Below, piece by piece: positions 8,325 to 28,986 of a stretch of 32,000 nucleotides of DNA (position 1 is the first letter of the stretch; each line of letters starts with the position of its first letter). The stretch comes from Cupriavidus necator (GTDB lineage: Bacteria > Pseudomonadota > Gammaproteobacteria > Burkholderiales > Burkholderiaceae). The stretch spans positions 2,640,001 through 2,672,000 of the forward strand of contig NZ_CP066019.1 in assembly GCF_016127575.1 (NCBI RefSeq). Reading direction: 5' to 3'. The translations under genes and the position numbers were made by a program. The notes under the pieces were generated by a model. The model was not told the origin of the DNA, made no database searches, and saw nothing but the letters and a program-made list of their open reading frames with translations.

Positions 8325-8349
8325 GCGATACCGGCACCCGGCCAGCAAG

Positions 8350-8376
8350 AAGGCCAGCGAATCCGCTGGCCTTTTG
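8350..8376. terminator. Bidirectional rho-independent terminator between the convergent genes
   Basis: Stem AAGGCCAGCG (8350-8359), loop AATC, stem CGCTGGCCTT (8364-8373). This is followed by TTTTG on the plus strand and TTCTTG on the minus strand. Confidence 0.75.
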
Positions 8377-8583
8377 TCATTCGTCGCGCCCCAGCCTGTG
8401 CATGGCCTCGCGCAGGGTCCGCATCTGGGCGCTGAAGCTGGTGCAGGCGTCGCAGATCGCCAGGTGGGAGCGCATGCGCAGCCGCTCGCCCCATGACAGC
8501 GGCCGGTCCAGGCCCTTCATGGTGAGGTGGTGGATCTCTTCGCAGTTCGGCAGCAGGCGGCGGGAAGGGCGGGAATCTGGCAT
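8377..8583 (-). CDS. Small soluble zinc-binding anti-sigma factor (ZAS, zf-HC2 type), 68 aa
   Basis: The motif C14-x25-H40-LAI-C-DA-C gives the canonical H-x3-C-x2-C. There is no hydrophobic TM segment. It lies 42 nt downstream of the ECF sigma gene. Confidence 0.75.
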   Translation of the reverse strand: MPDSRPSRRLLPNCEEIHHLTMKGLDRPLSWGERLRMRSHLAICDACTSFSAQMRTLREAMHRLGRDE

Positions 8584-8625
8584 GTTGCTCAGTGGCTTAT
8601 CCGTTGCATGGGCGGGGGGCCGGGA

Positions 8626-9219: not shown

Positions 9220-9305
9220 CGGGGATCGGGGCGCGGTTGCCTGGACGGATGGCCCATGATACCCGCGCCTTACCCGATCCCGTGGGATTGCCCGCCGACC
9301 GCGCG

Positions 9306-10469
9306 TCAGCGCCCGCCGGCGATACGCATCGGTCGGCCATTGGGGTCTCTCAGGAATTCGTTCGCGGTATAGCGATGCTCCTGCTTTTCGCCCATGACGA
9401 ATACATACAGGTTGACGCTCGCCCAACTGCAGGCGAGCCCTTCGCTGGCAAGCACGCTGAGGCAGTTGTGCAGGTTTTCCCGCGTGGGCTTGTAGTGGCC
9501 GCTGTTGTTGTCGATCACGCGCAGCGAGCCATTCCTGATGGTCAGCGTACCTGCGCAAATAACATCATTGCCCGCGTTGAACGACGAGTGGTTGAAGAAC
9601 ATGGCGTCATCCAGCGGATCTGCATCTTTAATGAACAAGGAGCCGTACTTGTCCATCGCATAGGCTGTCACCTTGACCGCATGTGTCGTGATGCGCTGGT
9701 TATTTACGTCGTACAGAAGTCCGTCGTCTCCGACGATCGCCATATACCGCATGCGTTCGCTCTTTGTCAGATAGTTGACATCGCCTGTGACAAGGTTCTC
9801 CCGACCGATGGCATCGAGCAGCTGAAAATCCTCCAGCGTCAGTGCGTGCACATCTTTGCTGGCAATCGCCTCGGCCTCTGCGCGCCGTTGCGGGTTGGCC
9901 GGCATCATCTGCGAGAGATTCTTGTGCGTCAGATGGACACCGCTGCCCGAGATCGCCTGGACCTTGCCCGACTGGAGATAGGACAGACGCTCGTTCTGAT
10001 AGTCCGCGCCCATCGGCCTGAGTTCGCGCACGTAGGGCGAGCGGTCACCGTGGTTGACACCGGAACCGAGCACCAGCAGCTTGCGCCGGTCGAATTTCAT
10101 CCGCCCGCGCAAGTCCGGGGTGAGAATACCCAGCTGGGTCAGGCGCGCATAGAGTTCCTGCAACGCTTCGCTGCCGAGATTCGTGATTGCACGACGGCGC
10201 GTGACGAACAGAGCATTGATCTTTTCAGCGCCGCCAACCAAGCCCTGACGGCTTTCCGGCTTGCCGCGCTTGAGCTTCAGCCAGCCGATGCACGCCGTCA
10301 CGATCGCGTTCAGGCTGGCGATCTCCCGCCGTGCGTCCCGTGCGCCGTTCATCTCTCGCCAATAGTCTTCCAGCGCGCAATCGACCGCGCGGATATTGCT
10401 GCCACGTGCCAGGAACTTCCAGTCCCTGGCGGTGGCGGCGATGAACGTCTGGTATTGGGTCCTCAGCAT
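9306..10469 (-). CDS. Hypothetical protein (about 387 aa) in a low-GC patch at the tssA end of the T6SS cluster; family not recognised
   Basis: Continuous ORF with GGGGAG 7 nt upstream of the ATG at 10469 (the alternative GTG at 10490 is used by the ORF track). Hand-counted 60-nt windows give about 50-58% GC, against about 68% in flanking genes. No signal peptide or TM segment. The C-terminal block is FFNHSSFNAGNDVICAGTLTIRNGSLRVIDNNSGHYKPT. Confidence 0.7.
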   Translation of the reverse strand: MLRTQYQTFIAATARDWKFLARGSNIRAVDCALEDYWREMNGARDARREIASLNAIVTACIGWLKLKRGKPESRQGLVGGAEKINALFVTRRRAITNLGSEALQELYARLTQLGILTPDLRGRMKFDRRKLLVLGSGVNHGDRSPYVRELRPMGADYQNERLSYLQSGKVQAISGSGVHLTHKNLSQMMPANPQRRAEAEAIASKDVHALTLEDFQLLDAIGRENLVTGDVNYLTKSERMRYMAIVGDDGLLYDVNNQRITTHAVKVTAYAMDKYGSLFIKDADPLDDAMFFNHSSFNAGNDVICAGTLTIRNGSLRVIDNNSGHYKPTRENLHNCLSVLASEGLACSWASVNLYVFVMGEKQEHRYTANEFLRDPNGRPMRIAGGR

Positions 10470-10529
10470 GTTCCAGCTCCCCTTGTCCACTTGATGTCAG
10501 AAAATGCCCGGGCTCGGATGCCGTGCCAG

Positions 10530-11627
10530 CTAGTTGTCCAGCAGCGCCAGATACCGCCCGATATCCCCGTCCTCACGCAGGATGTCCTGCATCAGATCCG
10601 CCAGTGGCATCTGCCCCCAGCGCACCGCGCGCCGCAGCAGGTATGGCGTGGGGCTGTGCGGCTCATGGCGCGCCAGGTAGTCGGCCACATCCCGGATCAG
10701 CTGGTAGGCATGCGCACGGTCCTCGATGCGGCCGTGCGCCAGCATGGCGGTCTGCCCCGGCCCCGCGGCGGGCAAGACCGGCATCGGCTCGGGATCGTCC
10801 ACGGGATCGTTGTTACCGGCCGGCCCCGTGGCGGCGGGTTCGCCACGGTGAGCGCTGCCTGCTTCGTCCCCGCGCAGCGCCGCCACCGCCCGCACCAGCC
10901 GCGCCAGCGTGTCGGTTACGCGCGCCAGGCTCGGCGCTTGCGCCCCCAGCAGCGCGTCGATGCGCCGGTCAAACCCAGCCCATTCGGCGCTGGCGCCGTG
11001 CAGGTCGCGCCACAACGCATCCAATCGGGCCCGGTCGGGCGCGTGATGCGCGCGCTGCAGCAGCGCCTCGCGGCCCAGGCTGTCGTAGTCATCGACCGGC
11101 GCCAGGCTGCGTTCCCACAGGTCCAGCGTGATGTGCAGGGGTTTCTCGTCGGCCAGCGACAACAGCGGGACATGCAGCGCCAGCACCGCTGGCAAGGTCT
11201 CGTTGAGCCATGCGATCGGGGCGCAGCGTGCCTCCGCATCGCCGGCTTCCATGCGCGGCCAGGCGCTTTCCCAATACGCGTCCGCCAACGCCCCCAGCAA
11301 GCGCACCCCGGCGCAAAAGCCGGCCGCGCCGTGCAGATGGATCCACGCCTCGCACAGCCATGCCGCCAGCTGGAAGTCCTTGCTGCGCGTGGCCAGCGCC
11401 TCGCTGGCGAGCGCGGCCACGCGTTTCCAGTCAGCCTTGACCAGCGGGCGCTCCCATTCCCGCATCGGCAAGGACTCGTCGTCGTGCTGGCGCGCTTCGG
11501 CGATGGCGCGATAGACCGCGTCGTAGCGCAGCGAAGCGCCCGCGGGATCGTCGCCCGGCACCGGCGCAAGCAGTGCCTGCGCGTCCGGGATGCGGTCTTG
11601 CGTTGGCGTCGTCATAGGTTGGTCCAT
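10530..11627 (-). CDS. tssA: Type VI secretion protein TssA (ImpA N-terminal domain family)
   Basis: ImpA_N signature: PAGASLRYDAVYRAIAEARQHDDE and WERPLVKADWKRV. TssA-type C-terminus: HEPHSPTPYLLRRAVRWGQMPLADLM. An alternative start at 11615 forms an ATGA overlap with the tssM stop. Confidence 0.9.
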   Translation of the reverse strand: MDQPMTTPTQDRIPDAQALLAPVPGDDPAGASLRYDAVYRAIAEARQHDDESLPMREWERPLVKADWKRVAALASEALATRSKDFQLAAWLCEAWIHLHGAAGFCAGVRLLGALADAYWESAWPRMEAGDAEARCAPIAWLNETLPAVLALHVPLLSLADEKPLHITLDLWERSLAPVDDYDSLGREALLQRAHHAPDRARLDALWRDLHGASAEWAGFDRRIDALLGAQAPSLARVTDTLARLVRAVAALRGDEAGSAHRGEPAATGPAGNNDPVDDPEPMPVLPAAGPGQTAMLAHGRIEDRAHAYQLIRDVADYLARHEPHSPTPYLLRRAVRWGQMPLADLMQDILREDGDIGRYLALLDN

Positions 11628-14600
11628 TCAGGAGCCCGGGTGGGAAAGCTTTGCGGCCACGGCAGCGGCATCTTCCTGCCCGCGGCCGTCAGCACCAGAC
11701 GCAGGAACACACGGCCGCGCACCGGCCTGGGCGCCGCCGTGAAATCCGGCGCGGCGCTGCCCAGCGGAAAGTCGAAGCGCAGCAGTTGCGCCGTGCTGTC
11801 GGCGCGCCCGCCCGGATCCGCGATGCGATGGCGCGCAATGAACGACAGCAGCGACCACGGGTCGGCAAAGCGCCAGGTCATGGTCTTGCCGTCGGCGGCC
11901 AGCGCGCGCTGTTCGGCGTCAGGCAACGCGACCATCGGTGAGTCCTTGGCAAAGCGCAGCGTCAGCGTCACCGGACTGCCGTAGTCCCAGTGCAGCGAGC
12001 GCGGCGCATCGCGCATCGACAGGCTCTGCGCGCCGATCGTCAGGGTCCAGTCGATGATCTGGTTGCCGGCCAGTTCCGCGCCGCGGTTGACGCGGAACTC
12101 CGCGCTCACGTCATAGCCCGCGGGCGCGCCCTCCTCGACCGGATACAGTGGCGCGAGCAGGGTCCTGACCTGGTCGAAGCTGTCGATGAACTGGTGCACC
12201 GGCACGCCGGACGCGATATTCCTGAGCGGCCCGTCGCCACGCGCGGCCCGGTACGTCGCCGAGAGCGGTTCATAGCGCTTGAGCACCCGGCCAAGCTCGG
12301 CATAGTCCGCCGTGCGCACCTCGCCGGCGTTGGCGGCGCCGCCAAACGGCGCGCGCCCGGCCAGCCGTTCATTGAACGTGGCCGAGAACCCGTCCCACTG
12401 CCGCTGCAGGTCGGCAAAATAGCCTTGCGCACAGCGCGCGAGCAGGCCGTCGTACAGGCGCACGTGCAGCGCGGCAAAGTAGTCATCCCCGCCGGCAGGC
12501 CGCGCCGCAAAGCGCGCCAGGCACACGCCCTGGCCGGACTCGGCCGCCGCGGCCTGCACGAACTGCTCCAGCATCAGCAGCCGGCTGTTCGGGTTCTTGA
12601 GCCGATAGCGTTCCAGATCGCGGTTCAGCGCCTGCCAGCGCAATGCCAGGCCGGAGCCGGCGTCGGCGGGCGAGAGCGCGGCAAGATACACCGCGGCCTC
12701 GCGGCCCAGGGCCTGCGCACGCGCCGACTGCTGGTCCAGGTACGGCCCCAGCGCCGCCGCGTCGTTCAGCCCGAACGCCGTCAGCAGCGGCGAGCGCGGC
12801 GCACGGGCCCCGTCGCCGGCGCTGCCCTGCCGGATCGCGTACAGCTCGGACTGCTGCAGCAGCTCGTCCACCGCGCGCAGCCGTGCCAGCGCATCGCGCG
12901 AAACCAGCGCATCGAGGTCATCCACGCGCGACATGGCATGCATCTCGCCCAGCATGGTCTTGATGCGCGCGATTCGGCCCAGTGCAGCCTCGAAGCCGGC
13001 GCTGCCGCCATCGGCCTGCAGCGGCGCCATGATTGCCGCGGTCGCGACCTGGTCGGTCACCAGCCGCGCAAACTGCTGGTCCACGCTTTGCGCAATCGCA
13101 TCGCGCCAGGGGCCTGGCAGGCCCGTCAGCCCCTCGTCAAGAAAGCGCTTGCGCATGTCGCCCAGGGCGATGGCCTGGTCAAGCTGCTGGCGATCCCACA
13201 GCACCGCCGACCCGGCCGGCACCGACGGCAGCGCCAGGTCGCGCGGCGGCGCCATGAACGGCTGGTTCAGCAGGGCGGCGAGCCGGTCGCGCAAGGCCAG
13301 CCGCTCGGGCGTGACCACGAAGCGGCCGTCCTTGTCCTGCCACGCGATCCCGCTGTCGGGTCCGCTGAAGCGCTGCGCCAGCTCGCCGGTGAAGGCCTGG
13401 AAGCCGCTTTCAGCGCGTGCGCGCGCGGCTGCCACCAGGTCTTCGCCGAGCAGCCGGTTCTGCGCGGCCTGCGCCAGCGTGCGCGCGTAGACGGTGCCCG
13501 CGGCGAACTGGGGCTGCCTGATCCAGCCGCCCTTGCCGGACGCCAGCAGTTCCTGCTGCGTGCCGATCGCCGCGACAATGCCGCGGTAGTCGGCCAGGAC
13601 CCGGTTGACGCCACTGCCGGCATTGGCCCCGCCGGCCAGTTCATCGAGGCTGGACCTGACGGCGCGCTCGGCCACCAGCAGCGGGTTGTTGTTGAAAAGC
13701 CGCTCGTCGAGCTGGCGCGCGCCCTTGTCGAAGGTGCAGCGCAAGGGCGGCACCAGCGCGGTCAGTGCCCTGCCGCCGGTTGCCAGGCTTGCGGCACCAC
13801 GCCCCTTGCCAGGGTCGCGCTGGAAATACGGCAGGCTGCCCGAGACCTCGCCCTGCAACTCCGCCCCCAGCGCATAGCGCACCACCAGCCGCAGCGCATC
13901 GGCGTTGGCAGGCTGCGGCGTTTCCAGCCGGTGCAGCGCTTGCAGCGCAGCGTCGAACTGGTCGACCGCGGCAACGTACTGCTGCAGCGCGCGCATCTCC
14001 GGCATGTCTTCCAGCGCCAGGCTGCGTGGCGGCAGGGCCTCGCCCCGTGCGCCCGGCGGCGCCAGGCAGCTGTCGCCGATGATCAGCTGGCCGGTGCTCG
14101 GGTCGCGCCCCACGCCTGTCAGCGTGTCGACGCGTGCCAGCAGTTCGCGATCGATGGTGTCGAGCGCGATCTCGCCGAAGGCGCGCTGGAAGCGATCGTG
14201 CACGCGCCCGTCCAGGTCGTCGATAAAGGCCCACGAGCCCGGCATGAACCAGGACGAGACCGACTGCGCGCTCAGGCGCTGGTTCATCGCGATCAGCCCC
14301 AGCGCCTGGCGCCGGTACCAGTCCGGCGGCAGGTCCTGGCCGCGCTGCGCGGCCAGCGCGCGCTGCTGCGCGCCGGCACGCAGTTCGCCAAGCGCGGCCA
14401 GCAGTTCGGCATGGCGATGTCCCATCTGCCATGCCGCGACCAGCAGTCCCCCGGCCCACGCGCACAGCACGGCCATGCCGCCCCAGCGCAGCGCTCGGTG
14501 CACCAGCGGCCGCGCCAGCTGCTGCGAGCGCGATGGCCGCGTCAGCCCGTACTCCAGGAAGATCTTCTTCTCGAACAGGTCGCGCAGGAACGCCGGTTGC

Positions 14601-15730
14601 CGCATCAGCTCGTTGAGCAGGTCGGCGGACGAGCTGGCGCTGGCTGCCGGCGCCAGCTCCGGCGCGTGCGCATCCTCTGGCGCCAGTGCGTCAGGCTGCG
14701 CCGCACGCAGGCGCGGCGCGGCGAAGGCGGGTGCATGCGCCGCCAGCTCGCCGCTGTCGCCGGTCAGGTAGACGCCGCGCAGATAGAAGGGCTCGTGATA
14801 GGCGCTGGGCCGCAGCAGTTCGTCGACATAGCGCGTGAGCTGCCCGCGCATGGCTTCGATGCGCGCCGGCAGCAGCAGCGACTGGCAGGCATCCACCTCC
14901 TGCGCCCCTATCGCCAGCAGCTCGGCCACACCGTCCGACACCGCGCGCACCACGCCCGACATGGCCGCATCGATCCAGCCCGACTGGTAGGTGGCCGACA
15001 GGTCGTACGGCGAGGACCAGCCCAGCATGCCGGCGCGCATCGGCTCTGGCAGCGCGCGCGCAAAGTGCGCGAAGCCCGGCAGCGACTCACAGCCCGTCAC
15101 CACCACATAGACCGCGAAACGCACCGCAAAGCGGTTCTGCGCCAGCCATAGCCGCCGGTGGGCCAGCTTGGCCCGGCGCACCAGCTCAAGCTGTGCGTCG
15201 GTGTCGTCGGCCAGCAGCATCGCCGCCGGCACCGTCACCACCACGCTGTCGAAGGGCCGTTGCGGGCGATAGCCGCGGCACAGGCCGAGGAACTCGTCCC
15301 AGGGCTTTTCATCGGTATCGTCGTCAGGCGAGCCCAGATAGGCCGCATTGATGTCGATGACCACGCCGCGGTCAAAGAAGTGCCATGAAATACCCTGCGT
15401 GGCGGCCGCATTGGCAGCGTCGGAGCCCAGCACGCTGGCCACGCCGGACTGAGCGATCGGCAGCGGCCGCGCATCCTCGCCCTCATTCAGGACCAGGATC
15501 CACGGAATGTTGTAGCGCTCGGCGCGCGAGGCGATATTGCCCTCGACCAGCTCGATCGCCTGGCGGAACGCGGTGCGCAGCGAATCGGTGCGCAGGCGCA
15601 CGATCTTGCGCTCGGCCGCCGGCTTGGCGCGGGCCCGCTGCGCAGCGAAATACAGCACCGCGCCGAGCACGGCCAGCGCCACCAGCGTCAGCACGCCGAT
15701 CGAAATCAGAAACAGGTTGCTGGTCAGCAT
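11612..15730 (-). CDS. tssM: Type VI secretion membrane subunit TssM (IcmF family), 1372 aa, P-loop degenerate
   Basis: N-terminal TM segment, cytoplasmic domain, second TM (ALRWGGMAVLCAWAGGLLVAAW), then a long periplasmic IcmF-related region. It follows tssL. The Walker A position reads IPWILVLNEGEDARPLP. Confidence 0.9.
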   Translation of the reverse strand: MLTSNLFLISIGVLTLVALAVLGAVLYFAAQRARAKPAAERKIVRLRTDSLRTAFRQAIELVEGNIASRAERYNIPWILVLNEGEDARPLPIAQSGVASVLGSDAANAAATQGISWHFFDRGVVIDINAAYLGSPDDDTDEKPWDEFLGLCRGYRPQRPFDSVVVTVPAAMLLADDTDAQLELVRRAKLAHRRLWLAQNRFAVRFAVYVVVTGCESLPGFAHFARALPEPMRAGMLGWSSPYDLSATYQSGWIDAAMSGVVRAVSDGVAELLAIGAQEVDACQSLLLPARIEAMRGQLTRYVDELLRPSAYHEPFYLRGVYLTGDSGELAAHAPAFAAPRLRAAQPDALAPEDAHAPELAPAASASSSADLLNELMRQPAFLRDLFEKKIFLEYGLTRPSRSQQLARPLVHRALRWGGMAVLCAWAGGLLVAAWQMGHRHAELLAALGELRAGAQQRALAAQRGQDLPPDWYRRQALGLIAMNQRLSAQSVSSWFMPGSWAFIDDLDGRVHDRFQRAFGEIALDTIDRELLARVDTLTGVGRDPSTGQLIIGDSCLAPPGARGEALPPRSLALEDMPEMRALQQYVAAVDQFDAALQALHRLETPQPANADALRLVVRYALGAELQGEVSGSLPYFQRDPGKGRGAASLATGGRALTALVPPLRCTFDKGARQLDERLFNNNPLLVAERAVRSSLDELAGGANAGSGVNRVLADYRGIVAAIGTQQELLASGKGGWIRQPQFAAGTVYARTLAQAAQNRLLGEDLVAAARARAESGFQAFTGELAQRFSGPDSGIAWQDKDGRFVVTPERLALRDRLAALLNQPFMAPPRDLALPSVPAGSAVLWDRQQLDQAIALGDMRKRFLDEGLTGLPGPWRDAIAQSVDQQFARLVTDQVATAAIMAPLQADGGSAGFEAALGRIARIKTMLGEMHAMSRVDDLDALVSRDALARLRAVDELLQQSELYAIRQGSAGDGARAPRSPLLTAFGLNDAAALGPYLDQQSARAQALGREAAVYLAALSPADAGSGLALRWQALNRDLERYRLKNPNSRLLMLEQFVQAAAAESGQGVCLARFAARPAGGDDYFAALHVRLYDGLLARCAQGYFADLQRQWDGFSATFNERLAGRAPFGGAANAGEVRTADYAELGRVLKRYEPLSATYRAARGDGPLRNIASGVPVHQFIDSFDQVRTLLAPLYPVEEGAPAGYDVSAEFRVNRGAELAGNQIIDWTLTIGAQSLSMRDAPRSLHWDYGSPVTLTLRFAKDSPMVALPDAEQRALAADGKTMTWRFADPWSLLSFIARHRIADPGGRADSTAQLLRFDFPLGSAAPDFTAAPRPVRGRVFLRLVLTAAGRKMPLPWPQSFPTRAPEWTNL

Positions 15731-15767
15731 GCGCCTGCCCCCCGGGCGCGGATGGGCTGCCGGCGCG

Positions 15768-16520
15768 TCATGGCGTGCCTCCGGCCACGGTGTCGGCCCG
15801 CAGCGCTTCGCGCACCGGCCAGGATTGCCACAGCCACGTCACCTCGGACAGCGCCAGCAGGGTGGCCAGGCCCAGCAGGAACACCACGGTCCAGCGCGTC
15901 AGCGTGGGCAGCTTGCGCGGCGCGATATGCGAGAGCGTGTGGGCGTACGCGGATTCGCTGAGCACGCGCTCGCGTCCGCCCAGGTCTGGCCGGCGTTGGT
16001 AGATGAACTCATACAGTTCCTCGCGCAGACTGCGCAGCCGCGCTTCGGCATCGGCGCCGCGAAAGCGCCCCTGGAAACCAAGCCCGAGCGTGAACAGGTA
16101 CAGCCGTGCCAGGTTGCGGCGCGACGGCTCGCGGTCCAGCAGCAGCTGCTCGATACGGCGAAACACCTGGTCGCCTGCCACGTTGGTGCGGAACAGCGTC
16201 GATTCGAGCAGATGCCCATGCCACGCGGCGCGGCCGGCCCAATCGGCGTTCAGCAGGATTTCATCGGCGAGCACCGCCTTCAGGTAGCGGGCATCGGCCA
16301 CGTCCTCCATCTCGAAGCGCGAGCTGTCGCGCCGCGATTGCAGGGTCTGCACTTCCAGCAGGTTCAGCAGCTGGCGGTTCATGCCTTGCGCGGCAGCTTC
16401 GCCGCTGAGGTCGGGTTGTTCGGAGAACCGCTCCTGCAGCTTGACGAGTTCATCCAGGAACGCCCGGAACTGCCCGGTGGCAAGATCGTCTTCCTCGGTT
16501 TCCGGTCGGTAGCGCGCCAT
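15768..16520 (-). CDS. tssL: Type VI secretion membrane subunit TssL (DotU family), no OmpA-like extension
   Basis: DotU-like core: ARYLKAVLADEILLN, LLESTLFRTNVAGDQVFRRIEQLL and LYLFTLGLGFQGRF. C-terminal TM is WTVVFLLGLATLLAL. Confidence 0.88.
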   Translation of the reverse strand: MARYRPETEEDDLATGQFRAFLDELVKLQERFSEQPDLSGEAAAQGMNRQLLNLLEVQTLQSRRDSSRFEMEDVADARYLKAVLADEILLNADWAGRAAWHGHLLESTLFRTNVAGDQVFRRIEQLLLDREPSRRNLARLYLFTLGLGFQGRFRGADAEARLRSLREELYEFIYQRRPDLGGRERVLSESAYAHTLSHIAPRKLPTLTRWTVVFLLGLATLLALSEVTWLWQSWPVREALRADTVAGGTP

Positions 16521-16546
16521 AGTCTGTTTGCCTTGATAGTCTGCCG

Positions 16547-17875
16547 TCAGCCCTTGACGAACAGCAGCATTTCCTGCGGCCGCTGCACGCTGGCGCCTTC
16601 ATTGGGATTGCCGATCACCATCGCCTCGTTGGCATGGACCAGCGCGGGATCGGCTTCGATCTCGAACAACAGGTAACCCGAGCCGGAACGCACCCCAAGG
16701 TCCTCGGCATGCTCGACCACACGGCGCACCGCGCCCAGCACGCGCCGCGTGCGCAGCGACGGGTAGACCGACTGCGAGCCCACCACAGCGCCCGACATCC
16801 AGGCCAGCAGGTCGCGCTCTGACTGCCCGCGCAGGCCCACCACCAGGCGCTCGCCGATCCAGTCCGGCTGCAGCACGATGTCGAACGCGCCGTGGCGGAA
16901 CTCGAACTTGTGCTCGCGGTACTCTTCGCTGACCTCGGCCAGGGTCTCGCGCAGCGCGCGCAGCAGCGGCGTGAACACGGCCATGGGGTCGGCGTGTTCA
17001 TAGTCGTCCGGCACCGGCGGCAGGCCGCCCGGCTTGAGCAGGCTGAGCGACCCCAGCACCGAGGCCAGCGCCAGGTAGAGTGCAAGCGGGTGCAGATGCG
17101 GCGTGCGCAACACCGCCTCCAGCAGCGGCAGCGCGGTCACCAGGCTGCGCAAGCGGTCCTTCAGTTCCAGCTGGGTCAGGCGGTCGTCCGCCCGGGATGA
17201 CGGGATCGCGGTCTGCTTGGCCACGAACGCGGCCTTGCCGCGCAGCTGGGCCACCAGCGACGCCACCGCCGTCCACAGCGCGCTGCCGCGTGCCACCTCC
17301 AGCAACGGCGGCAGGCGGTCGCCGAGCCGCACGATCTCGTTGTCCTTGTAGACCGCGCCCAGGCACAGCGACACATGGAGCGGCGACGGCCTGGCGCCGG
17401 CATCGAGTGCCAGGCTTGGCAGCAGGCGCGGAATGTCGGCGGGCGGCGCTTCGGACACCTCATCCTCCACCGGGGCGCCCGCCACCGAGCGGAACCGCCG
17501 CACCTGCCCGTCCTTGCGGTTTGCGGCCGCCACCGGCAGGGTCAGGTAAAGCGCCAGCATGCCGCCGGCAAGCGCGTCGGCAAACGGCTCGAGCGCCAGC
17601 TCCAGCGGCGGCTGGCGGGCATCGTCGCGCGCGTAGGACACGGCAGTGCCGTCCGGCATGATGGCTTCGAGCTGCAGCACGCGCACCACGCCCGCCGGCA
17701 GCAGCCCGGCGTCGAACTCCAGCCGGCGCACGCCCCAGCCAAACGGTGCGGCCGCGAGTGTCTGCCACGCCACCAGCGAATCGAGCCGCCCGGCCAGCAG
17801 CTGGAGATGCTGGGGCGCCAGCAGCATGCCCTCATGCCATTCAACCCGATCGACCGGCAGCGCGCGCTCAGACAT
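16547..17875 (-). CDS. tssK: Type VI secretion baseplate subunit TssK
   Basis: The N-terminus VEWHEGMLLAPQHLQ matches the TssK hallmark (W.EGM.L.PQH.Q). Size is 442 aa. It sits between tssJ and tssL. Confidence 0.9.
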   Translation of the reverse strand: MSERALPVDRVEWHEGMLLAPQHLQLLAGRLDSLVAWQTLAAAPFGWGVRRLEFDAGLLPAGVVRVLQLEAIMPDGTAVSYARDDARQPPLELALEPFADALAGGMLALYLTLPVAAANRKDGQVRRFRSVAGAPVEDEVSEAPPADIPRLLPSLALDAGARPSPLHVSLCLGAVYKDNEIVRLGDRLPPLLEVARGSALWTAVASLVAQLRGKAAFVAKQTAIPSSRADDRLTQLELKDRLRSLVTALPLLEAVLRTPHLHPLALYLALASVLGSLSLLKPGGLPPVPDDYEHADPMAVFTPLLRALRETLAEVSEEYREHKFEFRHGAFDIVLQPDWIGERLVVGLRGQSERDLLAWMSGAVVGSQSVYPSLRTRRVLGAVRRVVEHAEDLGVRSGSGYLLFEIEADPALVHANEAMVIGNPNEGASVQRPQEMLLFVKG

Positions 17876-17920
17876 GGGGGGCTCCCGGGCCGTACGCGGC
17901 CGTGGCAGGAAAAACCAGGT

Positions 17921-18424
17921 TCATTTGGTCACAAGCACGGTAAAGGCGGCGCTGTCGAGCTGCACGGCAAGCGTGCCGTTGAATTGCTCGACGCGGGCGC
18001 GATGCGCGCCCGGCGCCTGGTAGTTGGCGAACACATAGGCCGCGGCGACGCGCGGCCCCTCCAGGTCTTCGGCCGGCACGTCCAGCCGCTGGCCGGGCAC
18101 CAGTTCCCAGCTGCGATAACGCAGCCCGCTCGGATAGGTGCTGCCCAGGTCGCTGCGCCCGGCAAACCACTTGGCCGCGGGCAGGTCCGCCAGCCGGGCC
18201 TGCAGGGCCTCGTCGCTGACCAGCACCACGTCGACGGCCACCGGGCTGTTGCCGTTGGCATCCGCCGCCGCCGTCAGCGTGACTTGCTTCCATTTGACCT
18301 TGTCCCCCTTGAAGCCCAGCCATGAAGAGGCCGCGCAGCCCCCGAGCAGGCCAGCGAGCGCAGCCGCCGCCAGCAGCGTGCCGGCGCGGCGCAGGGATAA
18401 GAGATGCACGGGCGTCGTCATCAT
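17921..18424 (-). CDS. tssJ: Type VI secretion lipoprotein TssJ
   Basis: Lipobox LLGGC after a signal peptide. SciN-like ADANGNSPVAVDVVLVSDEALQARL. AAGGAG lies 4-7 nt upstream of the ATGATG at 18424/18421. The ORF track starts further upstream at 18457. Confidence 0.85.
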   Translation of the reverse strand: MMTTPVHLLSLRRAGTLLAAAALAGLLGGCAASSWLGFKGDKVKWKQVTLTAAADANGNSPVAVDVVLVSDEALQARLADLPAAKWFAGRSDLGSTYPSGLRYRSWELVPGQRLDVPAEDLEGPRVAAAYVFANYQAPGAHRARVEQFNGTLAVQLDSAAFTVLVTK

Positions 18425-18453
18425 CAGACTCCTTCGTGGTTGCGGATGCGGCA

Positions 18454-19908
18454 TCATTTCGCACCCACCCCGATGCCCATCAGCACGATCAGCAGACCGG
18501 CCAGCAGCGCGCAGGCGCTGGCCAGCGCCAGTTGCGCGCGCGTCAGCACCAGCCGCACCGCCGCGGCCTGTGCGGCGGGCAGCCGTGGGCCCGGCACGTG
18601 CGCGCGCCCATCCGCGCCCTCCATCCGCTGCGCCGCGACGCGTTCCATCGGCAGGCCCACCGACACCAGCGCAATCACCGCGCAGGTGCAGACCAGGCTC
18701 AAGGCATTGCGCGGCCCATCGCAGATCGGGTCGATCGCCAGCAGCAGCACTGCGGCTGCCTCAGCCGGCAACTGCAGCACCGACAGCGCAACGCCCGCAT
18801 AGGCGATCGTTCCCAGGCCGCCCTGCCCCGCCGAGAGCCAGGCCGCGATGGTGGCGGCCATCGCGATCCATGCCACGTCGCCGGCGCCCACGGGGCGCCC
18901 GTACAGGTTGGCGACGAACACCGTGGCCAGCGCGAAGTACAGCGCCGAGCCCCCGCGCACGAACACCGCGCCCAGGGGCACCACCAGCTCCACCAGCCCG
19001 CGCGGAAAACCCAGCCGCGCGCTCATGGCCTCGATTGTGTGCGGGATCGGCGCGGTGGCGCTGCCTGAGGCCAGGCCGACCAGCATGGAGCCATTCAGCT
19101 CGGTCACCACCTGCGAGAACGGCAGCCGCGCGCAGGCGGCAATCGCGGCCGCGGCCACGCCGCTGAGCAGCAGGCAGAGCATCAGGAACGTGACCAGCAC
19201 CCCGGCCATCGCGCCCATGGTGGCGCGGTCGGCATGCATCGACAGATGGGCCGCAAGCCCGAATGCCAGCACCGGGATCAGCAAGTTGGCGTGGGCGATG
19301 ATCTGCTCGAAGGTGCGGTAGATCCCTTCGAACACATTGCTCAGCATGCCGGTCTGCTCGCGCGACAGCGCTGCGAAGGCAAGCCCGAACAGCAGCGCCC
19401 CGGTGAGCACGCCCAGCGTCTGGCCATGCGCCAGTGCGCGGTAGAAGTTGTCGGGAATGATGTTCCCGAGCGCGTGCGGCAGCTTGTCCGTATTGGCCTC
19501 TGCCTTGCCATGCAGGTCCACGCGCACCTCGCCGCCATCGGCCACGCCGCTGAGGATCAGCGCGCCAAGCTTTTCGCTGGCCTGTGCAGGGAGTTCCGCG
19601 CCCGGCGCGGTCAGCAGCCCCGCCAGCGCGCCGGCCAGCGCGCACACCCCCACCACCCCGGCAGCCGTGCCGAAGATGGCGCCGAAACGCGCCCCGGCGC
19701 GCGGCAGCGCCAGCACCTGGCGCAGGCCGAAGAAGGTGGCCACCACCAGCAGCGGCACCGCGGCCATGTTCACCACCGACAGGTAGAGCTGTCCGACCAG
19801 CCAGGCGAAGCGGCCCAGCGGCCCGGCCACGGTGCCGGCGAGCGCGCCCGCCACCAGGCACAAGAGCAGCCCGGGCACGCTGTGCGAGAGCCAGTTCAGG
19901 GCTTTCAT
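18454..19908 (-). CDS. Dicarboxylate/amino-acid:cation symporter (DAACS/SDF) family transporter, divergent, with an extra C-terminal hydrophobic tail
   Basis: Aligns by eye to the GltPh core: SGSATAPIP (SSSGTLP), VVPLGAVFVRGGSALYFALATVFVAN, and IDPICDGPRN (DxxxDxxR). The start at 19908 forms an ATGA overlap with the racemase stop. I judged the ORF-track N-terminal extension to 20364 spurious. Confidence 0.8.
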   Translation of the reverse strand: MKALNWLSHSVPGLLLCLVAGALAGTVAGPLGRFAWLVGQLYLSVVNMAAVPLLVVATFFGLRQVLALPRAGARFGAIFGTAAGVVGVCALAGALAGLLTAPGAELPAQASEKLGALILSGVADGGEVRVDLHGKAEANTDKLPHALGNIIPDNFYRALAHGQTLGVLTGALLFGLAFAALSREQTGMLSNVFEGIYRTFEQIIAHANLLIPVLAFGLAAHLSMHADRATMGAMAGVLVTFLMLCLLLSGVAAAAIAACARLPFSQVVTELNGSMLVGLASGSATAPIPHTIEAMSARLGFPRGLVELVVPLGAVFVRGGSALYFALATVFVANLYGRPVGAGDVAWIAMAATIAAWLSAGQGGLGTIAYAGVALSVLQLPAEAAAVLLLAIDPICDGPRNALSLVCTCAVIALVSVGLPMERVAAQRMEGADGRAHVPGPRLPAAQAAAVRLVLTRAQLALASACALLAGLLIVLMGIGVGAK

Positions 19909-20627
19909 GCGGCCTTGTTCCAGCCGCGCGCCAGCGCGAACGCCACCGTCGCCCGTGCCAGCTCGTTGGTGCTGTCGACCAGCATGAGCGGCGGCGCGGC
20001 CAGGCCGCGCGCCGCCACCGGGATTTCCGTGCAGCCCATGATCGCGGCGCCGACGCCGAGCGCCGCGATCCGCGCCAGCGCGCTGCCAAGCGCCTCGCCG
20101 GCCTGGTCCAGGGCGCCGGCCTTGACCGCCCGGATGCAGGCATCGACCTGCAGCTGCACCGGCTCCGGCGGCACCACCGCCGCGATCCCGCGCGCGTCGA
20201 GCGCTGCCTGGTAGATGCCGGAGGCCAGCGCACCGCGCGTGGCCAGGATGGCCACGCTGCCGGTATCGGCAGGCAAGGCCGCCACGCAGATCCGCGCGAT
20301 ATGCAGGATCGGCGCCGCGCTGTGCGCGCTCAGTTGCGCATACCAGTGGTGCGAGGTATTGCACGGGATCACCACCAGCCCCACCTGGTTGCGGTTGAGC
20401 AGCTCGATGCCGCGCAGCAGGTAGGGCAGCGGCAAGGCATCGCCAGCCAGGATCGAGCGCGAGCGGTCAGGAGTCTGCGGCAGGTGCGCCACCACCATCG
20501 GCAGGTGGTCCTGGTCACGCACGGCATCGGTAAGCCGAACCACGCGATCGAGAAAATCCACTGTCGCCAGCGGCCCCATGCCGCCCAGCACCCCGATCAT
20601 GGTCATGCCAGTACTTCCGTTGTTCAT
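19905..20627 (-). CDS. Aspartate racemase (Asp/Glu/hydantoin racemase family)
   Basis: IGVLGGMGPLATVDF, and both catalytic-Cys motifs: VIPCNTSHHW and IMGCTEIPV. Size is about 240 aa. An alternative start is at 20606. Confidence 0.85.
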   Translation of the reverse strand: MNNGSTGMTMIGVLGGMGPLATVDFLDRVVRLTDAVRDQDHLPMVVAHLPQTPDRSRSILAGDALPLPYLLRGIELLNRNQVGLVVIPCNTSHHWYAQLSAHSAAPILHIARICVAALPADTGSVAILATRGALASGIYQAALDARGIAAVVPPEPVQLQVDACIRAVKAGALDQAGEALGSALARIAALGVGAAIMGCTEIPVAARGLAAPPLMLVDSTNELARATVAFALARGWNKAA

Positions 20628-20638
20628 ATGAGCCGACC

Positions 20639-21973
20639 CTAAAGCTTCAGCGGCCGCGGGCAGATCACCGACACCGCCGCGGTATTGCCGACCACCAGGA
20701 TCAGCGTGCGCAGCATGTCGCAGACCGGGTCGACGGCAAGGAAGAGAATGAATGCGGCCTCGAATGGCAGGCCAAGATAGGCACAGGTCATGCCGACCAG
20801 CGAAACGATCACCAGGCCCGTCATGCCGGCCGAAGCAAAGCCCGCCAGCACCGAGGCCAGCAGCACCGTGGCGATATCGACCAGGCCCAGCGGATGGCCG
20901 TACAGCTGCGCGATGAACAGCGTGGCGCAGACGTAATAGACCATCGGCCCCACGCGCAGCAGCGAGATCGCCAGCGGCACCAGCAGTTCCACGCGCACCC
21001 GGGCAAAGCCGAGCCGGTCGACCAGGCACTCGATCATGCTGGGCATGCAGGCCGCGCTGTTGCGCGTGGCCAGCGCCAGCGCAAATGGTGAGCGCAGCGC
21101 GTCCAGCGTGGCGCCCAGGCTCTGGCTGGAGCGCTTCCAGATGATCCCGACGGCCAGTGCCAGCAGCAGCACCGACGCGATAGAGAACGCCAGCACGAAC
21201 TGCATCATCGCCTGCAGCGGCTCCAGTCCGGACTTGCCCAGCTGCGCCGCGCTCATGCAGAACAGGATCACGGGCAGCGGATAGCTGAGCCAGTGCATCA
21301 GCTTCTGGCAGGCGTGGTAGACCGTTTCCAGCGACAGGCTCAGCCCGATGGAAATGCGCTCGGGCACGCGCCCCACGGCCAGGCCGAACATCAGCGCGAA
21401 CACCAGGGCCTTGAGGGCGTCGCCGTTGGCGAGCGCGGCAAAGATATTGGTCGGGATCAGGCTGGTCAGGACTTCGGACAGGCTCAGCGACTTCTCCTGG
21501 ATATCCTCGCCGTAGAGGTTCATCACCGTATCGCTGGACGTGGCATCGCTGCCCACCATCGCGCCGAAGGTCTCCATGGTGGCGCTCGACAGGTTGCTGC
21601 CCGGGCGCATCACGATCAGCACCAGTGCCGACACCAGCGCCACCAACAGCGACGCGCCGACAAACACCGTCACCACGCGGATCATCAGCCGCGAGGCCCC
21701 ACCATCGCGGAACAGCCGCTGCAGGCTGAAGATCACCGCCGACACCATGAACGGCAGCGTGGTCATCTTGAGCAGGTCCACGTAGACATCGCCCACCACG
21801 CCCAGGTGCCGGGCCAGCGCGGGCCAGAGCAGCCCGGTGGCGCCGCCCAGCGCCAGGCTGCCGATCACCACCCACGGATTGAGGGCAATGGCGTAGAGCT
21901 TGCCGGCATCCAGCTTCATGGACGCGGCGCGCTGTGCCTGGGCCGCGCCCGGCTTCATGGCGGGCGCGCTCAT
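20639..21973 (-). CDS. Dicarboxylate/amino-acid:cation symporter (DAACS/SDF) family transporter, divergent
   Basis: [26 protein letters not shown] aligns to GltPh [43 protein letters not shown] matches IDAILDMGRTMVNVTGD. The start forms an ATGA overlap with the upstream binding-protein stop. Confidence 0.82.
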   Translation of the reverse strand: [444 protein letters not shown]

Positions 21974-22941
21974 CGCGTGGCCGCCTGCAGCACGTCCGCC
22001 ACCTCGAGCCGCTTGGGCCGCTCGGCGAGGAACTGGTTGACAAAGCCCAGCAGCGCCGGCGCCGACACGTTGACGGCGATGCCCAGCGTGTCCTCAAGAT
22101 CCTGCAGCGTCACCACGCGCAGGCGCAGCGCAGCGGTCGGATCCGCCTTGAGCACGCGCTTGACCTCGAACTCGTCGCGGTACACCGCGGCGACGCGGCC
22201 GTCGTTCAGCGCCTTCAGGGCTTCATCCCAGGTTGGATAAGCCGTGACGTAGGCCTTGGGAAAATTGTTCACCACATACTCCGAGTACGACGAATTTCCG
22301 ACCACGCCAATCGAGCTGTCATAGGCGCGGATCACCTCCGGCACCGGCCGGCCGCGTGCCATCTGAGCGAACTTGACGCGATTGAGCAGCAGCGCGCGGT
22401 TCAGCCGCAGGTAAGGTGTGCTGAAGCTGATGATCTGCATGCGCGGCAGCGTGCGCGACAGCTTGCTGATGGCCACGTCGGCCTGTCCCTGCGCCAGCAG
22501 CTTGACCACCCCGTCGAAGGTGGTGGCGTCGCGGTTGAAGCGCACCCGCACGTTGAGCTTGCGCGCAAGCTCGCGCGCGAGGTCGATATCGAGCCCGCTC
22601 AGCTCGCCGTTGCGCTCCTGGAAGAACGGGGGCTGGTCCACCTTCAGCACCGCGACCACCAGTTCGCCGCGGCTGGCGATGCGGGCGAACTCCGGCGCCA
22701 TCAGGCGTCCGTCAGGCATCAACACCAGTCCGTTCGGTGTGGAGACTGGCGCAGGGGCGCCTTCCGGCAACCCGCCCTGCGCGGCAAACGATGCCGCCGG
22801 GTGGGCCGGTGCCGGCGTGTAGGTGGCCTGCGCATGGCCAGCGGCCGGCAGGGCAAGCGCGGCGCCCGCGAGGGCGCGCGCCAGCCAGCGCCACGCGCGT
22901 GTTGCCGCGCGGCGGGAATCAGGGACGGGAGTCAGCGACAT
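21970..22941 (-). CDS. Periplasmic solute-binding protein, family 3 (polar amino-acid binding type), with a long Ala/Pro-rich linker
   Basis: Signal peptide with the Tat-like DSRRAATRAW and cleavage near GHA-QA. SBP_bac_3 core: LVVAVLKVDQPPFFQERNGELSGLDIDLARELARKLNVRV, GQADVAISKLSRTLPR and FSTPYL. The start is set to 22941. Confidence 0.8.
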   Translation of the reverse strand: MSLTPVPDSRRAATRAWRWLARALAGAALALPAAGHAQATYTPAPAHPAASFAAQGGLPEGAPAPVSTPNGLVLMPDGRLMAPEFARIASRGELVVAVLKVDQPPFFQERNGELSGLDIDLARELARKLNVRVRFNRDATTFDGVVKLLAQGQADVAISKLSRTLPRMQIISFSTPYLRLNRALLLNRVKFAQMARGRPVPEVIRAYDSSIGVVGNSSYSEYVVNNFPKAYVTAYPTWDEALKALNDGRVAAVYRDEFEVKRVLKADPTAALRLRVVTLQDLEDTLGIAVNVSAPALLGFVNQFLAERPKRLEVADVLQAATR

Positions 22942-22961
22942 GGCGTCAAACGGTTCATGTT

Positions 22962-23240
22962 TCAGGGAGTCGAGGGCGCGCCTGGAGCCGCGGCAAGGCC
23001 AACGGCAATGGCGGGCGCCTGGGTGGCGGCGGGCAGCGTGGCAGTGGCCGGGGCCGCGGGCGCCACGGCCATGGGTGCGGTGTCCGCACGCTGGAGTACG
23101 CCAGGCCGTCCCAGGCGGGCGCCGATCTCCACGCCCATCAGGAACAACAGCGCACACAGCAGCACCGCGCAGGTCACGGCGATTGTCACCATGCGCGAGC
23201 TCATCGAGAATACGTAGGTCATGCTTGCCTCGGCGGTCAT
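22962..23240 (-). CDS. Small single-pass membrane protein with an Ala/Pro-rich tail (86-92 aa), unknown function
   Basis: The ATG at 23240 overlaps the TGA of the DUF4280 gene (TGATG). TM segment is MVTIAVTCAVLLCALLFLMGVEIG. GC3-rich frame. The stop is 20 nt before the binding-protein start. Confidence 0.55.
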   Translation of the reverse strand: MTAEASMTYVFSMSSRMVTIAVTCAVLLCALLFLMGVEIGARLGRPGVLQRADTAPMAVAPAAPATATLPAATQAPAIAVGLAAAPGAPSTP

Positions 23241-23626
23241 CAGGGGGTCATCACGGTGGCCTGCGCCGGCGCGACGATCTGGATCACGCCGCCCCATGCG
23301 CACATCAGTTTCGAGCTGTCCTGCAGCGCCGGCGCGCCGCCGATCTGCACGGTCGGCGCGCCCGGCAGCCACGGCGCCGACGTCGCCGGCACGCAGGGCA
23401 TCGGTGTCAGCACGCCCTGCGCCGCGGCGGTGGCCGCGGCCACCTGCGGGTTGCCCAGGCAGTTGCACATGCCGAAGGGCGGGATGTTCACCATCGGCAG
23501 GTGGTCCATCACGCTGGCCGCACCGGTGCCGGCCAGCACGCGGCCCAGCGGCAGCACGACCAGGCTGGACGGCGCCAGCCCGAAGCTGCACTGCATGGTC
23601 GCGCCCATGGTGACCTGCAAGGCCAT
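23240..23626 (-). CDS. PAAR-like DUF4280 domain protein (128 aa, no extension domain)
   Basis: MQCSFG, VNIPPFGMCN, PMPCVPATSAPW, APALQDSSKLMCAWGGVIQI match the DUF4280 Cys pattern. GAGGGG lies 7 nt upstream. The start is 2 nt after the MORN-protein stop. Confidence 0.85.
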   Translation of the reverse strand: MALQVTMGATMQCSFGLAPSSLVVLPLGRVLAGTGAASVMDHLPMVNIPPFGMCNCLGNPQVAAATAAAQGVLTPMPCVPATSAPWLPGAPTVQIGGAPALQDSSKLMCAWGGVIQIVAPAQATVMTP

Positions 23627-23628
23627 GG

Positions 23629-24333
23629 CTAACCCCTCAGCCAGCGTTCGAGACGCTGTGCAAAGCCGGCGGGCACTGCCGCGCCCTCCTCGCCATCGGC
23701 GGGTGCGATCGCCTGCCAGTCGCCGCGGGGATTGCCGTCGGCGTAGCTGCGCACGGCGATGACCTCGCCTTCCGGGTCGAACCTGCGCGCCATGCCGTGC
23801 AGCAGGTCGTTGCGGTACGGCAGCGACTGCGCCAGCGTGCCGCCGGCGCCGTACTCACGGGTCTCGCCCTCGAGCCTGCCGGCGCGGTAGCGGCTGCGGC
23901 GCACCACCGCGCCCTCATGCGCATAGACGGCCTCGTCCTCGAGCCGGCCCTGCCGGTAGACGCAGCGCGCGGTCACCTCGCCGGACGGCGCGTAGCACAC
24001 GCTCTCTCCCGCGAGCTGCCCGTCGGCGTACAGCTGGCGCGTCTCCAGCCGGCCGTTGCGGTAGGTGGCGCTGGTGCCGTGCAGGCGGCCGCCGGCATAA
24101 TGCGCTTCGTATTCGAGGCTGCCATCGGCGGCATAGGCACGCAGCAGCCCCGCCAGTTCGCCATGTTCGTATTCGGCATCCAGGCGCAGCGAGCCATCCG
24201 GATGGAAGCACTCGAACCTGCCGTGGGGGCGCCCGCCGGCCAGCGGCACGCGCGACACCAGGCGGCCATCGCCGTCATAAGCTTCGGCCATGGCGGGTCC
24301 TGGATCGGGCGGCGTCGGGGCAGCTAAAGTCAT
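23629..24333 (-). CDS. MORN-variant (YwqK/COG2849-type) repeat protein, 7-8 repeats of about 23 aa
   Basis: Repeats of the form G-x-L/P-H/A/E-G-x5-Y-x3-G-x-L: GRPHGRFECFHPDGSLRLDAEYEH, GELAGLLRAYAADGSLEYEAHYAG, GRLHGTSATYRNGRLETRQLYAD and so on. The start is 16 nt after the vgrG stop, with an alternative start at 24291. Confidence 0.8.
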   Translation of the reverse strand: MTLAAPTPPDPGPAMAEAYDGDGRLVSRVPLAGGRPHGRFECFHPDGSLRLDAEYEHGELAGLLRAYAADGSLEYEAHYAGGRLHGTSATYRNGRLETRQLYADGQLAGESVCYAPSGEVTARCVYRQGRLEDEAVYAHEGAVVRRSRYRAGRLEGETREYGAGGTLAQSLPYRNDLLHGMARRFDPEGEVIAVRSYADGNPRGDWQAIAPADGEEGAAVPAGFAQRLERWLRG

Positions 24334-24349
24334 GGCTCTGTTCCGCGGC

Positions 24350-26251: not shown

Positions 26252-26254
26252 GCG

Positions 26255-28975: not shown

Positions 28976-28986
28976 GTTTGTGCCGG

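Follow-up and report, generated by a model that had tools for sequence, protein, structure and literature searches.

Tox-EDA39C is a predicted alpha+beta toxin domain with the signature 'H, Sx[HS]Y' that was described by Zhang, de Souza, Anantharaman, Iyer and Aravind in a 2012 survey (Biol Direct 7:18; PMC3482391). According to that survey, the domain occurs in polymorphic toxins delivered by the type II, type V, type VI and type VII secretion systems (T2SS, T5SS, T6SS and T7SS), together with HINT and RHS domains, as well as in likely effectors of Wolbachia, Ehrlichia, Odyssella, Rickettsia, Legionella and Amoebophilus. It was also reported at the C-terminus of EDA39-type proteins from plants, fungi, Dictyostelium and stramenopiles, and its bacterial range was given as Acidobacteria, Actinobacteria, Proteobacteria, Bacteroidetes, Gemmatimonadetes, Planctomycetes and others (PMC3482391). 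The domain was predicted to be a metal-independent, RNase-A-like phosphodiesterase that uses two histidines to cleave RNA, and Imm-SuFu immunity proteins were reported with some of its members (PMC3482391). In a supplementary table of 2024, one of these authors still gives the function of the domain as unknown. No experimental work on Tox-EDA39C was found, and among searchable papers the domain is named in the main text of the 2012 survey only. The subject of this report is a gene for a 387-amino-acid (aa) protein that ends a T6SS gene cluster of Cupriavidus necator. The gene occupies 9306..10469 (minus strand, stop codon at 9306-9308 included) of a 32,000-nucleotide (nt) stretch of DNA, referred to here as the window (contig NZ_CP066019.1, positions 2,640,001 to 2,672,000). 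On the published signature, fold class and distribution, the protein is best filed as a stand-alone, T6SS-linked member of Tox-EDA39C, and it is predicted to be exported as a cargo effector of the adjacent T6SS, a reading to which a probability of roughly 0.6 is assigned.

The closest described protein from the same genus is TeoL of the T6SS1 of C. necator JMP134, which is an immunity-less, non-bactericidal cargo protein encoded inside a T6SS cluster (PMC8776902). The present gene is not that of TeoL, as TeoL is encoded downstream of vgrG1 and binds lipopolysaccharide on outer-membrane vesicles, whereas the present open reading frame (ORF) follows tssA and its product carries an enzyme-like toxin domain. 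In the window, the slot after vgrG is occupied by a gene for a 234-aa MORN-repeat protein (23629-24333, minus strand), directly downstream of vgrG, which is the slot that TeoL (Reut_A1725) takes in the T6SS1 of strain JMP134 (PMC8776902). A second comparison is offered by the Ntox43 domain of Pseudomonas aeruginosa RhsT, which likewise has two conserved histidines, a predicted metal-independent RNase-like mechanism and no adjacent immunity gene, the last of which has been read as a sign of use against eukaryotic hosts (PMC3482391). Ntox43 belongs to another domain family, however, and the RhsT tip is carried by an Rhs protein, whereas the gene described here is free-standing at the edge of a T6SS cluster.

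Assignment to Tox-EDA39C

Pfam and NCBIfam scans of the 387-aa protein returned no match, the sole Pfam line being a sub-threshold chance match to CysS_C, and sequence searches of the PDB with the protein alone, a full-family profile and a domain profile gave nothing meaningful. Tox-EDA39C itself has no entry in the Pfam and NCBIfam copies that were searched. An earlier note on this DNA, made from the sequence alone, had not recognised the family but had singled out a block of motifs in the C-terminal third of the protein. That block (YAMDKYG...FFNHSSFNAG..VICAG...IDNNSGHYKP) was confirmed and is conserved more strongly than any other region of the family. The family can be named, since signature and distribution match those published for Tox-EDA39C (PMC3482391).

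Conservation was scored over 255 homologous domain instances, with residues numbered on the 387-aa protein. The His of NHSS and the Tyr of SGHY, to which the earlier note had attached importance while allowing that the two positions might lack conservation, are the two most conserved residues (H294 99%, Y326 100%). They are followed by G314 (99%), G324 (98%), S323 and G307 (97% each), H325 and G300 (96% each), P328 (95%), G276 (94%), S295 (90%), position 296, which is Ser or Thr in 90%, D273 (88%), N321 (86%) and R239 (84%). Three motifs are formed by these residues, all encoded on the minus strand: D273-K-Y275-G276 in the turn of the first beta-hairpin (YAMDxYG; 9642..9653), N293-H294-S295-S296 with the first predicted catalytic histidine (9582..9593), and S323-G324-H325-Y326-K327-P328 (9486..9503), which contains the 'Sx[HS]Y' signature (PMC3482391). 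In a 40-sequence family alignment, the invariant columns of the C-terminal domain are D273, Y275, G276, N293-H294-S295-S296, G300, V303, A306-G307, G314, N321 and S323-G324-H325-Y326.

The likeness to Tox-EDA39C extends over several features. The 'H, Sx[HS]Y' signature corresponds to H294 together with S323-G-H325-Y326, the AlphaFold2 model of the domain is of the alpha+beta class, and relatives of the domain form the C-terminal toxin module of RHS, HINT, Fil_haemagg and WXG100 proteins. Occurrence in Wolbachia, Rickettsia-like bacteria and Legionella is shared, and Acidobacteria, Gemmatimonadetes, Planctomycetes, Bacteroidetes and Actinobacteria were all encountered independently among the homologues. 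The protein differs from the published members in that it has no repeat carrier, is fused to a helical domain of 225 residues, stands alone at 387 aa and has no immunity gene. In a profile search for plant EDA39, the best 120 matches held only unnamed or bacterial proteins. No SUFU-type match was found in the ORFs that follow members from Polyangiales, Halobacteriovoraceae, Amycolatopsis, Saccharothrix and Nocardia (few loci).

Homologues and toxin-type architectures

A word-indexed search returned 58 homologue clusters, all of them annotated as 'hypothetical' and mostly of 340-420 aa, from sources that include Cupriavidus, Paraburkholderia, Polaromonas, Cytophagales/Fibrella, Gemmatimonadaceae, Planctomycetes and Acidobacteria. 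One entry (P0001), annotated 'hypothetical protein [Cupriavidus necator]', is 100% identical to the 387-aa protein. With phmmer, an exhaustive search recovered 2172 representatives (E <= 1e-3), and among these matches residues ~226-366 alone recur within very large proteins, often in multiple copies. Domains that accompany them in such giant proteins are Fil_haemagg repeats, a glutamine-deamidase (Gln_amidase) toxin domain, a C-terminal ADP-ribosyltransferase, a WXG100-like (WXG100_2) T7SS leader and a type IX secretion system (T9SS) sorting domain.

The domain forms the very C-terminal end of an Amycolatopsis WXG100-RHS protein, of Streptomyces/Kitasatospora proteins in which eight ALF repeats are combined with a pretoxin-HINT (PT-HINT) domain, of an alphaproteobacterial SpvB-TcdB-RHS (Tc-toxin-like) protein and of a Bacteroidota DUF6443 protein. 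The arrangement of eight ALF repeats and PT-HINT is that of the UmbC umbrella toxins (PMC11062931). Actinobacterial T7SS-type cassettes hold the domain as well, as in Saccharothrix, where a WXG100_2 gene, the toxin gene and a small ORF occur together. Among host-associated and predatory bacteria, it was found in at least nine Wolbachia assemblies, Ca. Mesenet, metagenome-assembled genomes (MAGs) of Rickettsiales, three Legionella species (L. brunensis, L. drozanskii, L. qingyii), Legionellales and predatory Bacteriovoracaceae, and in Ca. Bandiella it is fused to ankyrin repeats. The toxin-tip subclades and the window protein can be linked because hidden Markov model (HMM) matches run in both directions: a profile of the window family finds the Streptomyces-type tips at 1e-15 to 1e-18, and a profile built from the tips alone recovers the window protein (1.6e-8) as well as the giant proteins (~1e-12), all of these being small-database E-values. 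Judging from the company that its relatives keep, the C-terminal third of the protein is a polymorphic-toxin-type module.

Tandemly spaced copies of the domain, from three to six per protein, were noted in the giant proteins P0114, P0113, P0112, P0121, P0120, P0096, P0147, P0182 and P0188. P0114 (4667 aa) has six seemingly intact copies at a spacing of ~480 aa and a T9SS sorting domain at its end; SGHY has been lost in some copies of P0147 and P0188 (for example, GGEY). Structural matches in BFVD include the unnamed viral proteins G8DGH9 (E = 5e-4, TM score 0.54) and E5EQ39 (E = 2e-2), and a scan of IMG/VR with alignment A2 found relatives on two giant-virus MAG (GVMAG) contigs, L079 and L087. 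Only the match to G8DGH9 is significant, and it gives no clue to function. Together, these matches suggest that large DNA viruses encode the domain as well.

Linkage to type VI secretion clusters

The earlier note had proposed the protein as a candidate effector at the edge of the T6SS cluster and had suggested that the neighbourhoods of homologues be tabulated. Neighbourhoods were examined at 71 genome loci, where T6SS core genes within 10 kb were sought with an insensitive tblastn search. Core genes were found within that distance at 10 of the 71 loci, in at least six lineages and at four or more positions relative to the cluster; by a rough estimate, which was not computed, chance adjacency to a T6SS would be below 1%. 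In Polaromonas the homologue is located upstream of tssB-tssC-hcp, the Inquilinus homologue lies between clpV and vgrG, that of Thiocystis is close to tssK/tssL, and a MAG of Binataceae has it next to tssA. In an uncultured gammaproteobacterium it follows clpV and lies beside genes for a cyclase of the anthrax-EF/ExoY type and a lipase-like protein. Rhs, T7SS, T9SS and Tc-type architectures are also represented among the homologues. With a C-terminal third of toxin type and homologues linked to T6SSs in at least six lineages, the protein stands as a T6SS-associated effector candidate, and its reading as cargo is supported because linkage to a T6SS recurs at different cluster positions in unrelated lineages.

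At locus L032, from an uncultured gammaproteobacterium, an apparent effector island (8301-12276) comes after the T6SS cluster and comprises genes for a protein with a nucleotidyl cyclase domain of the anthrax-EF/ExoY type, a 230-aa H...SGHY protein, a protein with a weak Tox-SHH match and a lipase-like protein.

Several observations weigh against export as T6SS cargo. PAAR, MIX, DUF4123 and Eag domains were not found by Pfam or NCBIfam in the protein or its neighbours. Many full-length homologues lie outside T6SS clusters, such as one among housekeeping genes in Fibrella and one in a planctomycete mobile island, and the orthologues are conserved rather than polymorphic. There is no immunity-sized ORF beside the gene, only 86 nt separating it from the next gene, and antibacterial effectors seldom lack an immunity gene. 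As many as six intact copies in a single T9SS protein would be odd for a simple toxin tip, the fold of the domain has no neighbour in the PDB, and the RNase chemistry is a prediction of 2012 only, against which the entry in the 2024 table has to be set. Nor did the Pfam and NCBIfam scans show a VgrG or Hcp fusion or a match to FIX/RIX, DUF1795 or DUF2169 in the protein, and no adaptor family was recognised among the genes of the window.

It is conceivable that the protein is not exported at all and works in the cytoplasm, either as an accessory or regulatory enzyme that accompanies this T6SS lineage or as an enzyme of general cellular function. A parallel would be the non-toxic EDA39 proteins of plants, for which the same domain is reported (PMC3482391), and EDA39 has been listed as a partner of calmodulin (CaM5). 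A cellular role would agree with conservation at the level of the T6SS core genes, with the absence of an immunity gene and of any delivery marker among those sought, with the many homologues unlinked to secretion systems, and with an N-terminal domain that is confined to stand-alone proteins. It is harder to reconcile with Rhs, TcB/TcC-like and umbrella-type toxins, in which the toxin position is taken by the same domain, with the dedicated downstream immunity-like gene of one subclade (see below), or with T6SS linkage at varied positions in unrelated lineages, a pattern that cargo genes typically show. A non-exported enzyme is for these reasons considered unlikely, and a cargo effector is preferred.

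Immunity and target

The earlier note had reported no adjacent immunity gene, and none emerged from the wider comparison. The gap on the downstream side is 86 nt, and a comparison of 26 loci of the stand-alone, full-length family revealed no shared neighbour outside the T6SS synteny of Burkholderiaceae. A subclade of toxin tips differs in this respect. Directly after the Streptomyces/Kitasatospora genes with ALF/PT-HINT tips there is a conserved helical ORF of 125-147 aa with no Pfam match, and the same ORF follows the alphaproteobacterial SpvB-TcdB-RHS gene whose tip belongs to that subclade. It was located at ~10200-10640 in L058, L061, L064, L066, L068 and L071, at 4391-4834 in L065 and at 10199-10576 in L070, and a motif resembling 'WEDRDLFPSL' is present near its C-terminus. 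From its position and conservation this ORF is a candidate for the cognate immunity protein, and the pair looks like a cross-phylum toxin-immunity cassette without a Pfam family. No homologue of the ORF was found in the window or at the other loci.

If the protein is a T6SS effector, its target may lie outside the producer, for example in a eukaryotic cell, a possibility raised by the lack of an immunity gene together with relatives in endosymbiont effectors and Tc-type toxins. Alternatively, the enzyme may stay inactive until it meets a factor of the target cell. That the domain can harm bacteria is suggested by the immunity-like gene of the Streptomyces-type subclade and by the bacterial targets of the umbrella toxins (PMC11062931), and small ORFs also lie downstream of the toxin gene in actinobacterial T7SS-type cassettes. 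The 387-aa protein could then itself be directed against bacteria, with an immunity determinant that is encoded at another site, escapes recognition because it is small or atypical, or is the protein's own N-terminal domain acting by autoinhibition. This seems decidedly unlikely, given that the immunity-like ORF has no homologue here, that no neighbour is shared by the 26 loci of the stand-alone family and that the intergenic space is so short.

Predicted structure and mechanism

An AlphaFold2 model of the full protein, built with the family alignment, is a single globule of high confidence (predicted local distance difference test, pLDDT, 91.8; predicted template modelling score, pTM, 0.89). 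The protein has two domains and is of cytoplasmic type. Residues 1-225 (9795..10469, minus strand) form an all-helical N-terminal domain, as assigned by DSSP from the model, with R91, Y157, E160 and R161 as invariant residues. An HMM of this domain matches 184 proteins of 157-473 aa, all of them stand-alone, and has no match in the giant, Rhs, Tc, Umb, Wolbachia or Legionella proteins. Residues 226-387 (9309..9794, minus strand) form the Tox-EDA39C-like alpha+beta domain, which was delimited from the model and the homologues and has its core at ~231-345. Modelled alone, the latter (pLDDT 89.2) has seven to eight strands and four short helices; the minimal domain in the family spans ~95-120 residues and 4-5 strands. 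The helical domain is packed on the toxin domain (pTM 0.89) and may complete the active site, bind the substrate or serve in loading. No IQ calmodulin-binding motif was found in the N-terminal domain.

In the model, H294 is located nine residues before a long beta-hairpin (strands 303-312 and 315-320), and S323, H325 and Y326 lie just past the same hairpin. Since both histidines are at the base of one hairpin, this topology suggests that H294 and H325 are adjacent, and they probably form the predicted catalytic centre. A two-histidine acid-base centre, aided by S323, Y326, D273, N321 and R239, is the likeliest working model. The chemistry predicted for Tox-EDA39C in print, RNase-A-like cleavage of RNA, is considered less likely than not. 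A serine nucleophile at S295/S296 was rejected as a candidate because these residues are replaced by Ile-Asp, His-Ser-Thr and others in the toxin-tip subclades, as was a catalytic cysteine at C305, which is conserved in only 65%.

Foldseek searches of 350,542 PDB chains with the full model and the 226-387 model gave no significant match at a threshold of E <= 0.001; the best matches, blasticidin deaminase and NanoRNase A among them, were at chance level, with E-values of 0.15-0.3 and TM scores <= 0.24. No solved RNase, peptidase or deaminase fold was similar in these searches, and the ADP-ribosyltransferase (ART), papain-like, 2H-phosphoesterase, BECR-RNase and LAS-metallopeptidase folds found no support.

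The ART fold deserves separate mention because the earlier note had pointed to the distance between the His of NHSS and the Tyr of SGHY as a resemblance to the H-Y-E class of ARTs. If the protein belonged to that class, H294 and Y326 would bind NAD+. The two are indeed the most conserved residues of the domain, their spacing of 32 residues resembles that given in the note for diphtheria toxin and PARP1, and TcC tips and one giant homologue have ART domains in another part of the protein. A conserved His and Tyr about 32 residues apart, as in diphtheria toxin, ExoA and the PARPs, are nevertheless insufficient alone for membership in the class. An ART fold is absent from the matches to either model, no Pfam ART family or ART HMM matches the protein, and no column with an acidic residue or Gln reaches 60% conservation after position 328, which leaves the catalytic Glu, Asp or Gln of the class without a counterpart. 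The minimal domain is small at ~95-120 residues, and the second invariant histidine beside the tyrosine (H325) is not an ART feature. Membership in the H-Y-E class is thus very improbable.

A bolder alternative is that the domain is an enzyme other than an RNase, with a fold and a chemistry absent from solved structures, and that in the stand-alone family the active site is completed by R91, Y157, E160 and R161 of the N-terminal domain. The protein would then be a non-bactericidal or anti-eukaryotic T6SS effector that needs no immunity protein since it would act on a substrate or cofactor specific to the target cell. This proposal is rather doubtful. If it were true, one mechanism would join T6SS cargo, the tips of umbrella, Rhs and Tc toxins, effectors of Wolbachia and Legionella, giant-virus proteins and plant EDA39.

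The gene and its age

The earlier note had given the ORF as 387 aa at 9306-10490. The length holds, whereas the upstream limit does not, as it reaches an in-frame GTG at 10490 from which a protein of 394 aa would be made, and the start codon is the ATG at 10469. The 387-aa form is supported by a Shine-Dalgarno-like sequence, AAGGGGAG (10477-10484, minus strand), that lies 7 nt 5' of this ATG and was verified by a coordinate check, and by the N-terminal start 'ML..QY' that is common to all close homologues. The distance from the stop codon of tssA (10530-10532) on the same strand to the ATG is exactly 60 nt, as had been reported. With this short gap, its own ribosome-binding site and no terminator detected, the gene is probably co-transcribed with tssM-tssA. 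A hydropathy scan of the protein bore out the absence of a transmembrane segment and a signal peptide (maximum Kyte-Doolittle 19-residue mean 1.19; isoelectric point 9.35).

The G+C content (GC) of the ORF is 0.598 (0.60, 0.43 and 0.765 at the first, second and third codon positions, GC1 to GC3), which is below that of the neighbouring genes, as previously observed (n=17; GC 0.66-0.75, GC3 0.82-0.92). Windows of 1164 nt across the 32 kb have a mean GC of 0.698 (standard deviation 0.027), placing the ORF ~3.9 standard deviations under the mean, and the lowest of them (0.593) starts at 9351, inside the ORF. GC in 60-nt windows of the ORF ranges from 0.52 to 0.72. The hand counts of the earlier note, mostly about 50-58%, are roughly right for the 3' half (0.52-0.62), whereas the 5' half lies above them; the return to high GC in the last 40 nt was seen again (0.72).

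Recent horizontal acquisition had been proposed from this composition, but synteny, core-like conservation and the composition of the orthologues speak against it. The order of tssA and the ORF is kept in Cupriavidus sp. NPDC089707 and in four Paraburkholderia genomes. Identity to the former is 86% for the ORF, 78% for tssA and 91% for tssM, and identity to the latter is 64-67%, 50-55% and 62%, respectively. A GC deficit of ~7-12 points relative to the cluster is found in all of the Cupriavidus and Paraburkholderia orthologues and in Polaromonas, so that low GC is a stable property of the gene rather than a mark of recent arrival; in part it stems from amino-acid composition (GC1 0.60). On these comparisons, the gene is an old and stable part of this T6SS lineage that was evidently inherited with the cluster.

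Other genes of the window

The cluster reads from tssF to tssA on the minus strand, with the 387-aa ORF as its terminal gene. Directly upstream of the ORF is tssA (10530..11627; TIGR03363, E = 1.1e-74, and ImpA_N). Beyond it, Pfam scans identified within 11612..31763 (minus strand) tssM, tssL, tssK, a 178-aa ORF, two SDF symporter genes and a solute-binding protein gene, and then the genes for the MORN protein, vgrG, clpV, tssG and tssF, which make up the rest of the T6SS cluster. The two SDF (sodium:dicarboxylate symporter) genes and the family-3 solute-binding protein gene, whose product has a glutamate-receptor-like ligand-binding domain, lie at 18454-23157 (minus strand) between vgrG/MORN and tssK. 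Since the first SDF gene is similarly placed in Cupriavidus sp. NPDC089707 (87% identity) and in the four Paraburkholderia genomes (~63%), this insertion is a conserved trait of the T6SS lineage.

On the other side of the ORF, 86 nt from its stop codon to the ATG at 9219, is a gene for an extracytoplasmic function (ECF) sigma factor (8626-9219, minus strand; NF009173/PRK12520 type), followed by one for a zf-HC2 anti-sigma factor (8377-8583, minus strand; identified by profile scans). No terminator-like site was detected between the ORF and the sigma factor gene. The ECF sigma/zf-HC2 pair is absent beside the orthologue in Cupriavidus sp. NPDC089707 and Paraburkholderia. Beyond the zf-HC2 gene is a CusCBA-like resistance-nodulation-division (RND) efflux system. 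A 135-aa ORF with a signal-peptide-like N-terminus and no Pfam match (7917-8324, plus strand) is flanked by the anti-sigma gene and by a DUF2946-like gene that precedes the CusCBA-type efflux operon, and contains internal repeats (PGDKYGY.FRS twice, GK.DP..EGAR-like three times). A 374-aa ORF (190-1314, minus strand) located downstream of the RND pump genes has no Pfam match at E <= 1e-4 and, given the high GC, may not be a real gene.

Significance

Tox-EDA39C is a widely distributed predicted toxin domain that is associated with many secretion systems, endosymbiont effectors and giant-virus contigs, and reportedly with plant EDA39. The family was already described from comparative genomics in 2012, and what is new here is a stand-alone member linked to a T6SS. 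The finding will not surprise specialists in polymorphic toxins, and its interest is moderate, as a tractable route to the function of the domain. An exported 387-aa protein would add another immunity-less T6SS effector to a genus that already has TeoL. Cupriavidus necator is a genetically tractable model bacterium, and its single-copy, immunity-less, T6SS-linked member of the family would be a convenient system in which to study the secretion, target range and chemistry of Tox-EDA39C.

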